This document shows positions 2,533 to 55,012 of a DNA stretch of 64,000 bases, one piece after another. The notes under the pieces are model-generated. The model saw only the letters and a program-made list of their open reading frames with translations. It did no database searches and was not told where the DNA came from. Source of the stretch: a phage; the sequence record PZ452582.1. One strand, 5' to 3'. The translations under genes and the position numbers were made by a program. How positions within the stretch are numbered: the stretch's first letter is position 1; the number at the start of each line of letters is the position of its first letter.

Positions 2533-2706
2533 ATGAAATCATATACTCAATTTTTAAATGAAGCGGTGTTAAATGAAGCATCTAGCACCGAAATTCAAGC
2601 TGTCGCAAAAGCAGCCATTGCAGCGGGTAAATATTCTTATAAAGATGCTTCTGATGAATCGCGATTCCAGTTCGCACGCGACATGAAAGCGGAAGGATTT
2701 ACGTGA
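2533..2706 (+). CDS. small protein (57 aa) with capsid-targeting-sequence-like N-terminus (candidate internal protein)
   Basis: N-terminus MKSYTQFLNEA resembles T4 internal-protein CTS MKTYQEFIAEA; SD agga; late promoter upstream. Confidence 0.5.
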   Translation: MKSYTQFLNEAVLNEASSTEIQAVAKAAIAAGKYSYKDASDESRFQFARDMKAEGFT

Positions 2707-2718
2707 AATGCAGTTAGT

Positions 2719-3006
2719 ATGGCCTGGAAAAGTTTAGTTGCTACTGGAGCTGCTTTTGCAAAGGCTTCAGGTAAACCTGCTCCTAAGGCTGACCCTAAAG
2801 CAGCACAAGAAAAAAATATTGCTAAAGGAATTATCTCTAGGTATGAAGCAATTCTTAAAGAACTTTTGATAATTAAGACCGAAGGCCAGAAACTTGCGCG
2901 AGCTCATAGTTTCAAAGATAACCCACATGCTCACTCTCTTGAGTATGTTGAAGACATCCAAAAAATTATTAAAGACCGCATTTGGTCTGCTAAACAAATC
3001 AAATAA
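2719..3006 (+). CDS. hypothetical protein (95 aa), Lys/Ala-rich N-terminus
   Basis: ATG ORF ending just before a terminator hairpin. Confidence 0.55.
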   Translation: MAWKSLVATGAAFAKASGKPAPKADPKAAQEKNIAKGIISRYEAILKELLIIKTEGQKLARAHSFKDNPHAHSLEYVEDIQKIIKDRIWSAKQIK

Positions 3007-3013
3007 CATTCTT

Positions 3014-3042
3014 AGCCCCGACCAAAAGGTTGGGGCTTTTTG
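3014..3042 (+). terminator. rho-independent terminator (second copy of the 2455 hairpin)
   Basis: agccccgacc-aaaa-ggttggggct plus TTTTT; near-identical to 2455-2482. Confidence 0.7.
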
Positions 3043-3133
3043 GTATCTAGGCCTTTCCGGGCCTCTCTAGACATCATTTAGTTTCTACCCTTTATAATAT
3101 ATTATCCTATCTTTTAATTGCCCCTCCCTGCCC

Positions 3134-50540: not shown

Positions 50541-51968
50541 GTGGTAGAAATTATTCTTTCTCATCTTATATTTGATCAAGCTTATTTTTCAAAAGTTTGG
50601 CCATATATGGATTCAGAATATTTTGAAAGTGGTCCAGCTAAAAATACATTCAAATTAATTAAATCTCATGTCAACGAGTACCATAGCGTTCCATCTATTA
50701 ATGCGTTAAATGTTGCATTAGAAAATAGTTCATTTACTGAAACAGAATATTCTGGTGTAAAAACACTTATTTCAAAACTGGCTGATTCTCCAGAAGACCA
50801 CAGCTGGTTAGTAAAAGAAACAGAAAAATATGTTCAGCAAAGGGCGATGTTTAATGCTACGTCTAAAATAATCGAAATTCAAACTAATGCTGAGCTTCCT
50901 CCGGAAAAACGAAATAAGAAAATGCCGGATGTTGGTGCTATTCCTGACATCATGCGGCAAGCATTATCTATTTCATTTGATAGTTACGTTGGTCATGATT
51001 GGATGGATGACTATGAAGCACGTTGGCTATCTTATATGAATAAAGCTCGTAAAGTTCCATTTAAACTCAGAATTCTAAACAAAATTACTAAAGGCGGAGC
51101 TGAAACAGGAACACTGAACGTTTTAATGGCTGGCGTTAACGTTGGTAAATCATTAGGATTGTGTTCATTAGCGGCAGATTATTTACAGCTCGGACATAAT
51201 GTTCTTTACATTTCCATGGAAATGGCAGAAGAAGTCTGTGCTAAGCGTATTGACGCTAACATGCTTGATGTTTCTCTTGATGACATTGATGATGGGCATA
51301 TTTCTTACGCTGAATATAAAGGAAAAATGGAAAAATGGCGTGAGAAATCTACCCTTGGTCGTTTAATCGTTAAGCAATATCCTACTGGTGGAGCAGACGC
51401 TAATACATTTCGATCACTTTTAAATGAATTAAAGCTCAAGAAGAATTTTGTTCCAACAATCATTATTGTCGACTATCTAGGTATTTGTAAATCTTGCCGC
51501 ATTAGAGTTTATTCAGAAAATAGTTACACAACTGTTAAAGCTATCGCAGAGGAATTGCGTGCTCTGGCTGTTGAAACCGAAACTGTTCTTTGGACTGCAG
51601 CACAGGTTGGTAAACAAGCTTGGGACTCTTCCGATGTTAACATGAGCGATATTGCAGAATCTGCTGGTCTTCCAGCAACAGCTGATTTTATGCTTGCGGT
51701 CATTGAAACCGAGGAGCTAGCAGCTGCTGAACAACAACTCATTAAGCAAATCAAATCACGATATGGTGATAAGAATAAGTGGAATAAGTTTTTGATGGGT
51801 GTTCAAAAAGGAAATCAAAAATGGGTAGAAATTGAACAAGATTCTACTCCAACTGAAGTGAGTGAAGTAGCAGGTTCACAACAGATTCAGGCTGAGCAGA
51901 ATCGCTATCAAAGAAATGAATCCACTCGAGCTCAGTTAGATGCTTTGGCAAATGAATTAAAATTTTAG
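50541..51968 (+). CDS. 41: replicative DNA helicase gp41 (DnaB-like)
   Basis: GTG start with SD aaggag; Walker A GVNVGKS; 475 aa. Confidence 0.95.
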   Translation: MVEIILSHLIFDQAYFSKVWPYMDSEYFESGPAKNTFKLIKSHVNEYHSVPSINALNVALENSSFTETEYSGVKTLISKLADSPEDHSWLVKETEKYVQQRAMFNATSKIIEIQTNAELPPEKRNKKMPDVGAIPDIMRQALSISFDSYVGHDWMDDYEARWLSYMNKARKVPFKLRILNKITKGGAETGTLNVLMAGVNVGKSLGLCSLAADYLQLGHNVLYISMEMAEEVCAKRIDANMLDVSLDDIDDGHISYAEYKGKMEKWREKSTLGRLIVKQYPTGGADANTFRSLLNELKLKKNFVPTIIIVDYLGICKSCRIRVYSENSYTTVKAIAEELRALAVETETVLWTAAQVGKQAWDSSDVNMSDIAESAGLPATADFMLAVIETEELAAAEQQLIKQIKSRYGDKNKWNKFLMGVQKGNQKWVEIEQDSTPTEVSEVAGSQQIQAEQNRYQRNESTRAQLDALANELKF

Positions 51969-51997: not shown

Positions 51998-52026
51998 AGT
52001 CTTGTTGGTTAAATGAGGAGATTGTT

Positions 52027-52209
52027 ATGGAATTGGTAAAGGTAGTTTTTATGGGGTGGTTTAAGAATGAAAGCATGTTTACTAAAGAAACCACAATGAT
52101 GAAAGATGACGTTCAATGGGCTACTACTCAATATGCTGAAGTTAATAAAGCATTAGTTAAAGCTTTCATTGATGACAAGAAAGTATGTGAAGTAGATTGC
52201 CGAGGATAA
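52027..52209 (+). CDS. dmd: Dmd-like antitoxin (T4 61.5)
   Basis: 60 aa, near-identical to recalled T4 Dmd (MELVKVVFMGWFKNESMF...). Confidence 0.8.
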   Translation: MELVKVVFMGWFKNESMFTKETTMMKDDVQWATTQYAEVNKALVKAFIDDKKVCEVDCRG

Positions 52210-52210
52210 T

Positions 52211-52468
52211 ATGCATATTGTTTTATTTAAACCTACTCCGTATAACGTCAGGAAAAATACGCAATTCAAAGCACTTATTGCAGATACGTGGGAATTGGTG
52301 CTAGATATTCCAACAGAAGAAAGTCCTCCATTTGGTCGAGTGGAATTTATTAAGTTTGCTGTACGTCCTACGAAGAGGCAGATTCGTCAGTGTAAAAGGT
52401 ATTTTCGTAAAATCGTCAAGTTAGAGAAACAGTTTGTAACATGTGATTATGCAGAAGTTTTAAAATAG
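52211..52468 (+). CDS. T4 61.4-like small protein (85 aa)
   Basis: Position and size match T4 61.4 (reported as ToxN inhibitor TifA, from memory). Confidence 0.5.
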   Translation: MHIVLFKPTPYNVRKNTQFKALIADTWELVLDIPTEESPPFGRVEFIKFAVRPTKRQIRQCKRYFRKIVKLEKQFVTCDYAEVLK

Positions 52469-52471
52469 CTG

Positions 52472-52500
52472 TTTACTTTTGTTGGAAATTGAGATACTAT
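52472..52500 (+). promoter_or_regulatory. early promoter (TTTACT-17-TACTAT)
   Basis: GTTTAC motif. Confidence 0.6.
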
Positions 52501-52528
52501 ATAAACATAAACTACTGAGGAGATTATC

Positions 52529-52822
52529 ATGAAAAAATTTATCTTTGCTGCAATTTTTGCTTTAGCTTCTTGTGCTGCTCAGCCTGCTATGGCAGGTTAT
52601 GATAAAGATTTGTGTGAATGGTCTATGACTGCGGATCAGACTGAAGTTGAAACTCAAATTGAAGCGGATATTATGAATATCGTTGAGCGCGATCGTCCTG
52701 AAATGAAAGCTGAAGTGCAAAAACAGCTTAAGTCTGGTGGTGTAATGCAGTATAATTATGTTCTGTATTGCGATAAAAACTTTAATAACAAAAATATCGT
52801 AACCGAAATCACAGGTGAATAA
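52529..52822 (+). CDS. sp: spackle-like periplasmic protein (T4 sp / 61.3)
   Basis: 97 aa with signal peptide MKKFIFAAIFALASCAAQPAMA; matches T4 Sp size and position. Confidence 0.7.
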   Translation: MKKFIFAAIFALASCAAQPAMAGYDKDLCEWSMTADQTEVETQIEADIMNIVERDRPEMKAEVQKQLKSGGVMQYNYVLYCDKNFNNKNIVTEITGE

Positions 52823-53456
52823 TATGATTTATTATATGCACAAAAATCCACCGTTTAAATACGGTAAATTTCCTGATGCACAATGTTATAATATAACGCC
52901 TGATGAAAATAACCGTGGATATCTTATTGGCACAATTTTTGTAATTGTTAAAGATAACGAAATCGTTGCCTGGGCAGATTTTAAAGGTACAACACATGAT
53001 GTTAATCCGGTGCCTTTCACATATTACAATATAATGGATTTGGCATATGATTATAATTGGTTTAATCATGACACGTTGGCTCATATTGAAGGTGTAGGAT
53101 TTGACATCTCTTATTCTAGCTACTCATTGTGTCCTATGAGTCGGGCTCATAAAGAACCTGAATATTTTTCATTTAGGAAACGTGTAAACTTTAAACGCAA
53201 CACAGAGTATGTCGGTGGAATATTTGTTAAAGATAATCGAATTATTCGTATTAATTATCCTTTGAGCGTTAGTCAAAAAGATATTGATGTTGATTTAGAT
53301 TTCACTGAAAATAATATTAATCATATTGCTTCTGTGTATTTTGGTATCGATCACAAAATTGTAATATGTGGATATGAATTACCGTTTGAAGAACAGCCTA
53401 AAGTAAATGTTTCTATTGATGACCAAATTTTTAATGCTTTTATGAATAAAGGTTAA
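52815..53456 (+). CDS. T4 61.2-like protein (213 aa)
   Basis: Position and size match T4 61.2 (reported anti-DarT factor AdfA family, from memory). Confidence 0.5.
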   Translation: MNNMIYYMHKNPPFKYGKFPDAQCYNITPDENNRGYLIGTIFVIVKDNEIVAWADFKGTTHDVNPVPFTYYNIMDLAYDYNWFNHDTLAHIEGVGFDISYSSYSLCPMSRAHKEPEYFSFRKRVNFKRNTEYVGGIFVKDNRIIRINYPLSVSQKDIDVDLDFTENNINHIASVYFGIDHKIVICGYELPFEEQPKVNVSIDDQIFNAFMNKG

Positions 53457-53460
53457 TATG
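53409..53460 (+). repeat. direct repeat copy 1 (gene 3' end plus next start), repeated at 53767-53818
   Basis: tctattgatgaccaaatttttaatgcttttatgaata(a/g)aggttaatatg. Confidence 0.8.
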
Positions 53461-53814
53461 TATAGTTCTGAATTTTCATATTTAAAAATGGAAAAAATTT
53501 CATACGATTTTATAGATGAAAAGGTTTATTACAGTTTCCATGAACCACGTTTTAATAGTGAGGTTGGGTTTATTGTAGTAAAAGACAATTTTATTTTAAA
53601 AATATATTCAGCATTAAAGGATTTTCATTACGAAAATATTAACCTAAAATTTAATAAAGAAAACGTTCGTAATTGCGCAGTAACAATTACGGGAAATAAA
53701 GGTACATGTGTTATGCTATCTGATGAAATTAATGATTTGCTAAATGATGCAGAAAATATTACTGCACCATCTATTGATGACCAAATTTTTAATGCTTTTA
53801 TGAATAGAGGTTAA
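53458..53814 (+). CDS. T4 61.1-like protein (118 aa)
   Basis: C-terminal SIDDQIFNAFMNRG duplicates the tail of the upstream gene. Confidence 0.5.
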   Translation: MYSSEFSYLKMEKISYDFIDEKVYYSFHEPRFNSEVGFIVVKDNFILKIYSALKDFHYENINLKFNKENVRNCAVTITGNKGTCVMLSDEINDLLNDAENITAPSIDDQIFNAFMNRG

Positions 53815-53818
53815 TATG
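53767..53818 (+). repeat. direct repeat copy 2
   Basis: Near-identical to 53409-53460. Confidence 0.8.
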
Positions 53819-53980
53819 AAAACATATAAAGAATTTATCAAAGAAGATATGGTCGCTGGAGATTCAGGTGGTAGTCCTGAAAATATCTCTACTGGAACAA
53901 CGTCAGGCGCTGTAGTAAATAAAGGTCCTGAACAGATTCCTAAAAAGAAAAAAGAGGAATCTAAAGAAAAAGAAGAGTAA
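53816..53980 (+). CDS. small Lys/Glu-rich protein (54 aa) with CTS-like N-terminus
   Basis: MKTYKEFIKE matches the T4 internal-protein capsid targeting sequence; stop 3 nt before gene 61 ATG. Confidence 0.45.
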   Translation: MKTYKEFIKEDMVAGDSGGSPENISTGTTSGAVVNKGPEQIPKKKKEESKEKEE

Positions 53981-53983
53981 AGA

Positions 53984-55012
53984 ATGTCATCAATACCTTG
54001 GATTGATAATGAGTTTGCATACCGTGCATTAGCTCATTTACCTAAATTCACACAAGTAAATAATAGTTCAACTTTTAAATTACGGTTTAGATGCCCTGTT
54101 TGTGGAGATTCAAAAACCGACCAAAATAAAGCCCGTGGATGGTATTATGGTGATAATAATGAAGGAAATATTCATTGTTATAACTGTAACTATCATGCAC
54201 CAATCGGAATATATTTAAAGGAGTTTGAACCTGATTTATATCGTGAGTATATCTTTGAAATAAGAAAAGAAAAAGGTAAAAGTCGTCCAGTAGAAAAACC
54301 TAAAGAACTTCCTAAACAACTTGAGAAGAAAATAATTAAATCTCTTCCGTCATGTGTTAGATTAGATAAACTGGCGGAAGACCATCCAATTATAAAATAT
54401 GTAAAAGCTCGTTGTATTCCAAAGGATAAATGGAAATATCTTTGGTTTACAACCGAATGGCCTAAATTAGTTAATAGCATAGCACCGGGAACATATAAAA
54501 AGGAAATACCTGAGCCTCGTCTTGTTATTCCAATTTATAATGCTAATGGAAAAGCTGAGTCTTTTCAAGGACGTGCATTAAAGAAAGATGCTCCCCAAAA
54601 ATATATCACCATCAAAGCTTATCCTGAAGCAACAAAAATCTATGGAGTCGAACGAGTTAAAGATGGTGATGTATATGTTCTAGAAGGACCTATAGATTCA
54701 CTTTTTATTGAAAATGGTATAGCTATTACGGGTGGTCAATTAGACCTAGAAGTTGTTCCATTTAAAGATAGACGTGTGTGGGTTTTAGATAATGAACCTC
54801 GTCATCCTGACACTATTAAGCGAATGACTAAATTAGTTGATGCAGGAGAAAGGGTTATGTTTTGGGATAAATCTCCCTGGAAATCAAAAGATGTTAATGA
54901 TATGATTAGAAAGGAAGGTGCAACCCCTGAACAAATTATGGAATATATGAAAAATAATATTGCACAGGGGTTGATGGCTAAAATGCGGCTATCTAAATAT
55001 GCCAAGATTTAA
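53984..55012 (+). CDS. 61: DNA primase gp61
   Basis: 342 aa; N-terminal zinc finger CPVCGDS...CYNC; Toprim-like core. Confidence 0.95.
   Translation: MSSIPWIDNEFAYRALAHLPKFTQVNNSSTFKLRFRCPVCGDSKTDQNKARGWYYGDNNEGNIHCYNCNYHAPIGIYLKEFEPDLYREYIFEIRKEKGKSRPVEKPKELPKQLEKKIIKSLPSCVRLDKLAEDHPIIKYVKARCIPKDKWKYLWFTTEWPKLVNSIAPGTYKKEIPEPRLVIPIYNANGKAESFQGRALKKDAPQKYITIKAYPEATKIYGVERVKDGDVYVLEGPIDSLFIENGIAITGGQLDLEVVPFKDRRVWVLDNEPRHPDTIKRMTKLVDAGERVMFWDKSPWKSKDVNDMIRKEGATPEQIMEYMKNNIAQGLMAKMRLSKYAKI

Follow-up and report, generated by a model that had tools for sequence, protein, structure and literature searches.

The locus between sp and the primase gene

The analysis covers a stretch of 64,000 nucleotides of phage DNA, to which we refer as the window. 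In the region of interest the window is 96–98% identical to many Tequatrovirus (T4-like) genomes, and its genes, all on the + strand, follow the T4-like order 41, dmd, 61.4/tifA, sp, 61.2, X, 61.1, 61. The gene 41 helicase (50541-51968) precedes dmd (52027-52209) and 61.4/tifA (52211-52468), known anti-toxin genes of the dmd-tifA-adfA region that has been termed the anti-TA island (PMC9391042). The spackle gene sp (61.3; 52529..52822) is the left neighbour of adfA (gene 61.2; 52824..53456), which encodes 210 aa from the ATG at 52824, the more likely start, or 213 aa from the GTG at 52815 used in the list of open reading frames; from the primers quoted in PMC11257639 and an alignment we infer that the published numbering of AdfA starts at Met5 (52836). 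The gene that follows, here called X (phrog_4122; 53458..53814, 118 aa), has one domain, is paralogous to the C-terminal half of AdfA, and is present in some relatives of this phage and absent from others. Gene 61.1 (phrog_1823; 53816..53980, 54 aa) and gene 61 for the DNA primase (53984..55012), which forms the right boundary of the variable locus, complete the series.

A repeat search of the window recovers a 49-nt direct repeat at the junctions on either side of X, with 48 of 49 positions identical and a start-to-start spacing of 358. Copy 1 (53412..53460, + strand) comprises the last 14 codons of adfA/61.2 (SIDDQIFNAFMNKG), the stop codon TAA, one nucleotide, and the ATG of X; copy 2 (53770..53818, + strand) comprises the last 14 codons of X (SIDDQIFNAFMNRG), TAA, one nucleotide, and the ATG of 61.1. 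The preliminary description had read a direct repeat of 50 nt and 15 codons at these gene ends, 358 bp apart; on exact comparison the repeat and its spacing are real, and its size becomes 49 nt with 14 sense codons. Its edges are abrupt (GTT vs CCA immediately upstream, ATG-T vs ATG-A downstream), and the sole mismatch between the copies is A at 53449 (AAA, Lys) vs G at 53807 (AGA, Arg). The encoded tail can be written SIDDQIFNAFMN[K/R]G, that is, the peptide S-I-D-D-Q-I-F-N-A-F-M-N-[K/R]-G. The body of X together with one copy of the repeat makes up a 358-bp unit (53461..53818, + strand, or equivalently 53412-53769, since the repeat leaves the exact placement ambiguous), which is missing from T4- and PE37-type genomes. 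Allowing up to 3 mismatches, a third site is absent from the 64-kb window, and the same pattern has no match in 100 dinucleotide-preserving shuffles. The two-copy layout also recurs in several metagenome contigs and in independent phage records of GenBank, about 158 in number. With these results, a chance match or an artefact of assembly or sequencing has a negligible probability.

The 3' part of the repeat provides the next gene with its ribosome-binding site and start codon. In copy 1 this part (AAAGGTTAATATG; 53448..53460, + strand) has a weak Shine-Dalgarno sequence, AAGG, within the Lys-Gly codons, followed by the stop codon and the ATG of X; in copy 2 (AGAGGTTAATATG; 53806..53818, + strand) the Shine-Dalgarno sequence is GAGG, 5 nt before the ATG of 61.1. 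The Lys/Arg difference (53449 vs 53807) is also a difference in the Shine-Dalgarno sequence of the downstream gene, AAGG before X and GAGG before 61.1.

Such features could be read as a sign that the repeat is conserved for a regulatory role of its nucleotide sequence, which would have to stand before certain genes as a translational operator, a structured RNA, or a PeSL-type cassette with promoter and terminator. The final 13 nt clearly form the translation start of the downstream gene (Shine-Dalgarno sequence, spacer and ATG), this initiation module of 13–15 nt recurs by itself after sp in T2 and RB3, and copy 2 can form a weak hairpin that touches the Shine-Dalgarno sequence. Against these points, no promoter-like site was found on the + strand overlapping 53412-53460 (the single promoter-like site near copy 2, a 9/12 match, is on the minus strand), no terminator-like site was found within the repeat, fold energies are no better than those of shuffled sequences (z of −0.13 and −0.96 for the two copies alone, and of +2.1 and −1.4 when flanking sequence is included), and no Rfam family is matched in 52000-54200. 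Moreover, the synonymous sites of the coding 42 nt vary by lineage while the peptide stays fixed, and the gene downstream of the tail varies by phage, being X, 61.1, a TifA-like ORF, or orf32. We consider a regulatory origin of the repeat very improbable.

Throughout the loci surveyed for tail-bearing genes (19 from IMG/VR, 8 from GenBank, 12 from metagenomes), each such gene sits between sp and the primase gene, with at most two per locus. The surroundings show some variation of their own. In RB69-like phages the 61.1 sequence is not a free-standing 54-aa gene: it makes up the last third of a 155-aa protein (phrog_2086), seen in locus L007 (NHEP11; 2643-3110) and in L019, L020, L032, L038 and L039. 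A Tequatrovirus contig (L011, ~2690-2950) has an extra ORF of ~85 aa (MMLVNREYQFKSEEDLEKF...) between 61.4 and sp, with an altered 3' end of 61.4; it looks like another variable cassette of the same island. GenBank labels at the locus are inconsistent, with 61.1 or AdfA described as 'major capsid protein' or 'head morphogenesis protein', and 61.4 as 'DNA primase/helicase' or 'goF mRNA metabolism modulator'; these odd labels look like transferred errors.

AdfA, gene X and their common tail

The 210-aa protein matches the Pfam family PF23813 (AdfA) over the whole profile (positions 1-211 of 211; E = 6.4e-138; 457 bits, with a cutoff of 27) and is 100% identical to RB68_036; on the strength of the profile match the 210/213-aa gene is AdfA (gp61.2, anti-DarT factor A). 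AdfA with His at position 164 is reported to bind DarT1 (PMC11257639; PMC9391042), and in RB69 AdfA an R-to-H change at 164 lets the protein bind and neutralise this toxin (PMC11257639). The AdfA of the window has His at the equivalent position (...NNINHIAS). Two sharply different N-terminal alleles of AdfA can be recognized over window positions 52824-53000, an RB69-like one (MIYYMHKNPPF...) and a T4-like one (MLYQMHKCKDT...), as compared between L001, L008 and L037 on one side and L004, L005 and L029 on the other. From about position 52996 of the window the two alleles converge to ~95% DNA identity, which places a mosaic breakpoint inside the gene. Either N-terminal allele is found both with and without X.

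Gene X shares with AdfA its locus, its C-terminal peptide, and a profile match that is confined to the C-terminal half: residues 21-118 align with AdfA 114-213 at 37% identity (BLASTP, E = 3e-10), and the match to PF23813 (32.2 bits, cutoff 27; E = 8.8e-8) spans profile positions 113-211 only. Precomputed Pfam annotation already puts the cluster of X in PF23813.2. However, X is half as long, its identity to AdfA is only 37%, the residue opposite His164 is Asn, and the 118 aa of X form a single domain rather than the two-domain, full-length architecture of AdfA. Gene X is a relative within the AdfA family, and not an orthologue of AdfA. The intervening gene had been described as 61.1-like, which is wrong: the 118-aa gene is a paralogue of AdfA, with matches to AdfA and phrog_4122, and 61.1 (phrog_1823) is the next gene, of 54 aa. 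That X is a real gene follows from its presence in 295 GenBank phage records and from a dN/dS of 0.15–0.28, similar to that of AdfA (0.25–0.34). In T2 (L002, AP018813.1; 637-993) X stands directly after sp and is 98% identical to the X of the window; this phage is described as one that 'naturally lacks an adfA homolog' (PMC11257639).

The AlphaFold (AF2) model of X (pLDDT 82.6) has a confident domain of five strands plus helices at residues 8-100, a disordered linker at 102-105, and then the conserved tail at 106-115, modelled with low confidence as a helix of its own. In the AF2 model of AdfA (pLDDT 70.8) the five-strand-plus-helix pattern of X occurs twice, and the tail helix is at 198-207; in both models the confidence for the tail is low (pLDDT 54–61). 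Mainly from these matching secondary-structure patterns, AdfA looks like two X-like domains in tandem; the hhalign match between the N-terminal half of AdfA and the X family is weak (probability 20%, E = 1e-3). A search for a solved structure or an informative structural neighbour returned none.

A profile built from X and the C-terminal half of AdfA finds only six clusters (at 50% identity) among 1.84 billion representative proteins. They are X, AdfA, three more body types of 119–125 aa that are 27–47% identical to X, and one fragment. The tail reads DDQIFNAFM[NK]RG in all clusters except the 41-aa fragment, in which it reads DVQIFNAFMNRG; DDQIFNAFM is invariant in X, AdfA and the three further body types. 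The preliminary description had noted a C-terminal peptide common to the two proteins of this locus, and that observation is not only borne out but extends, without change, to the whole family. Because the peptide is invariant while the bodies diverge, and because 11 of the 16 positions of the tail that vary across lineages are third codon positions, purifying selection on the tail peptide is, by this comparison, strong in all members of the family that were found.

The tail is also carried by orf33 (phrog_8539, 122 aa) of Dhakavirus-like phages; beyond the tail, the candidacy of orf33 as a family member is weak (probability 42%, E = 3e-4 without the tail). Downstream of the tail in Dhakavirus C6 (L006, MW679410.1; 1848-2069) there is an intact 73-aa ORF that starts exactly at the tail ATG, resembles gp61.4/TifA, and carries the motif ARPTKRQLRKLKK; it is unannotated in the C6 record. 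A TifA-like ORF after the tail is found also in L013-L018, L021 and L023. Phages with the 73-aa ORF would thereby carry a second TifA-like gene right behind the tail-bearing gene.

In the models the tail sits at the very end of the protein, on a flexible linker, a position that suggests a role in docking. Replication and transcription proteins of T4 have C-terminal peptides that bind the sliding clamp, that of gp43 among them. Like the T4 clamp-binding peptides, the tail is short, partly hydrophobic, and placed at the extreme C-terminus behind a flexible linker, and both the tail and the clamp-binding C-terminus of gp43 (KASLDFLFG in the window) start with S-[IL]-D and end with G. The sequence likeness to the gp43 ending (...SLDFLFG) is loose and serves as a lead only.

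Variation at the repeat

All four combinations of the two genes occur among the relatives of this phage. The arrangement sp-AdfA-X-61.1 is found in the window, R5505 and PhiZZ6; sp-AdfA-61.1 in T4 and PE37; sp-X-61.1 in T2; and sp-61.1 in RB3. In terms of GenBank records, about 158 have both AdfA and X, about 137–144 have X only, and many have AdfA only, the central region of AdfA being present in 469 records, Mosigvirus included. The preliminary description had proposed that relatives with and without the intervening gene be compared for breakpoints in the repeat, and in three genome pairs this comparison gives indels of 358 or 361 bp with their edges in the repeat. A single 358-bp gap, flush with the repeat, separates the window from PE37 and, likewise, PhiZZ6 from T4; in a second lineage, whose tail sequence differs, a 361-bp gap that is again flush with the repeat separates L021 from L022. 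The flanks of these indels are mostly 88–100% identical. The genomes without the unit (T4, PE37, L009, L010 and L024) have exactly one copy of the tail, joined to 61.1. The locus has in this respect the makeup of a substrate for repeat-mediated rearrangement, with direct repeats that flank the variable segment and variants that keep one copy when the segment is absent. Queries for an Arg tail joined to X, or for X joined to X, returned only two-piece joins from genomes that have X alone, and such joins carry no information on duplication products. The comparisons fit deletion and insertion alike, and it is from them that we infer losses and gains of X.

Further rearrangements were seen in this interval. 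T2 and RB3 differ by the same X unit, here bounded by the 14-nt repeat of the initiation region. A simple microhomology deletion of AdfA does not account for the junctions after sp in these two phages, because the observed sequence (GAATAATTAGAGG...) is unequal to the predicted product. Between L021 and L022 the orf33-like genes just upstream of the tail (alignment columns ~500-700) are only 58–72% identical in loci that are otherwise 96–100% identical, and the replaced segment stops at the tail. In L028 (Mosigvirus-like, reverse strand; ~1790-1830, compared with L007 2560-2625) most of the orf32 that follows AdfA is deleted, with the left breakpoint exactly at the tail ATG, an AAATG microhomology at the join, and a 7-codon remnant.

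The tail DNA has a history of its own. The bodies of X and of the C-terminal half of AdfA are 46.6% identical at the nucleotide level and use the same codon at 9 of 26 identical residues; their tails use the same codon at 13 of 13 (P ~5e-4 from the codon usage of the genome). Identity of this degree needs more than selection on the peptide, and the tail DNA is, as judged from codon identity, far younger than the gene bodies. Furthermore, tails group by phage lineage and not by gene family. The tail of Tequatrovirus X is 0–1 nt away from the AdfA tails of Tequatrovirus and 7 nt away from the tails of the X-like genes of L021 and L023; the Tequatrovirus AdfA tail is 6 nt from that of Mosigvirus AdfA; and the X-like tail of L023 is 3 nt from the tail of its own neighbour. 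Some haplotypes occur in both positions of the array: GACGAT is found in copy 1 of R5505, PhiZZ6, L029 and L030 and in copy 2 of L012, and the copy-2 haplotype GATGAC is found also in copy 1 of the window and of L037, on both AdfA alleles. The youth of the tail DNA, the grouping by lineage and the haplotypes common to copies 1 and 2 together indicate that DNA has been exchanged between tails by gene conversion or recombination, a signal of concerted evolution that comes from few lineages and from sequences of 49 nt.

The alternative is that only selection on the shared peptide is at work, the repeat having no role in recombination and X having been gained or lost once and then spread by ordinary recombination in the flanking genes. 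The invariance of the peptide in all family members agrees with this alternative, as does the identity of the flanks, which at 90–100% is high enough for general recombination to move the indel; a single ancient indel spread in this way would likewise end flush with the repeat. The Lys/Arg site points in the same direction, since in every genome examined it is perfectly linked to the identity of the downstream gene, and a chimera in which the Lys tail leads to 61.1 has no perfect match among 491 records. In view of this linkage and of the missing chimera, crossovers would all have occurred in the left 37 nt of the repeat, or else have been few. However, selection on the peptide leaves unexplained why 13 of 13 tail codons are the same when the synonymous sites of the bodies are saturated, why tails group by lineage, and why copies 1 and 2 have haplotypes in common; nor does a single indel account for the independent flush indel in the second lineage, which has a different tail. 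We regard this alternative as unlikely, although more probable than a regulatory element. The earlier proposal that the repeats serve in recombination receives support, on the other hand, from natural variants in two lineages.

Interpretation and comparison with known systems

The explanation that we favour, with a probability of roughly 70%, is that the repeat is the conserved 3' end of tandem AdfA-family paralogues together with the next translation start, and that it is used for recombination. The constrained peptide would keep ~45 nt of nearly identical DNA at the end of each family member, and T4-type homologous or short-homology recombination would use this tail for unequal crossing-over and gene conversion. 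An X cassette, consisting of the X body, the tail and the initiation region, could in this manner be deleted, re-inserted, or moved behind another tail-bearing gene, and each exchange would leave both reading frames and the downstream translation start intact. The locus would thus behave as a small expandable array of 0, 1 or 2 modules of AdfA-family genes in the dmd-tifA-adfA island. Within each module the variable domain may set the specificity for the target, because the body is where the R164H change switches the specificity of AdfA, and the constant tail may provide a common function, for example docking to a shared partner. As a case of recombination at a conserved gene end, the repeat is real but fairly ordinary.

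A bolder version, which we put forward as possible but doubtful, treats the AdfA family as modular inhibitors. The fast-evolving domain or domains would pick the toxin variant, the invariant tail of 12–14 residues would be a docking or 'warhead' motif, the frozen tail DNA would double as a recombination site, and X would be a candidate anti-toxin factor. Possible partners of the tail include a conserved surface of DarT or the clamp of the replisome. If this version is true, T-even phages add, drop and swap modules in frame, as in an array of counter-defence cassettes, and X is an unrecognised anti-toxin factor even in T2, a phage described as having no adfA.

Few direct inhibitors of a DNA-ADP-ribosylating toxin are known, and AdfA is one of them; its T4 allele has no phenotype against the DarT1 tested. 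To this picture the present analysis adds a tiny family, restricted to one locus, with one- and two-domain forms that all carry an invariant, tethered C-terminal peptide. The invariant tail is a concrete target for studies of the mechanism of AdfA, and X is flagged as a candidate counter-defence gene in ~295 sequenced phages, T2 among them. More generally, the repeat illustrates how a stable recombination site can arise from selection on a peptide, a site at which counter-defence modules change in number while their neighbours are left undisturbed, and this bears on the way anti-defence islands diversify. If only the ordinary reading set out above is true, the locus is still a clean textbook case of gene gain and loss bounded by a repeat in T-even phages.

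The novelty of these results is modest: AdfA, the anti-TA island and the rearrangement of T4 DNA at short homologies are all known, and Pfam already places X in PF23813. The half-size paralogue, the tail that is invariant throughout the family, and the coincidence of tail and indel were not found in the literature covered, a body of work that does not include the original AdfA paper (LeRoux 2022).

Two known systems offer themselves for comparison. The modular shuffling of PeSL cassettes at repeated boundary elements is established (PMC2839356, 2010). As with PeSLs, the tail repeat is a short repeat at gene boundaries of variable regions, it bounds indels and replacements between close relatives, and the proposal is that small cassettes are excised when neighbouring copies recombine. 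In contrast to PeSLs, which are non-coding and consist of a sigma-70 promoter and a terminator stem-loop, the tail repeat consists for the most part of coding sequence (14 codons), followed by a ribosome-binding site, with neither an early promoter of the sigma-70 type nor a stem-loop terminator.

The second system is the short-homology ('minihomology') deletion and amplification of T4 DNA, as documented for rII, for genes 16-18, for the dmd-tifA amplification, and in CRISPR escape (PMC9391042); the dmd-tifA amplifications were selected in the laboratory (PMC9391042). Here, too, a direct repeat flanks a non-essential segment, X lies in the same island as the dmd-tifA amplification, and the natural variants of X look like the expected products of minihomology deletion. 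The differences are that the T4 cases involve 2–10 bp and were seen experimentally, whereas the homology at the X locus is 49 bp long, is maintained by selection on a peptide, and marks events that are read from comparisons of genomes.
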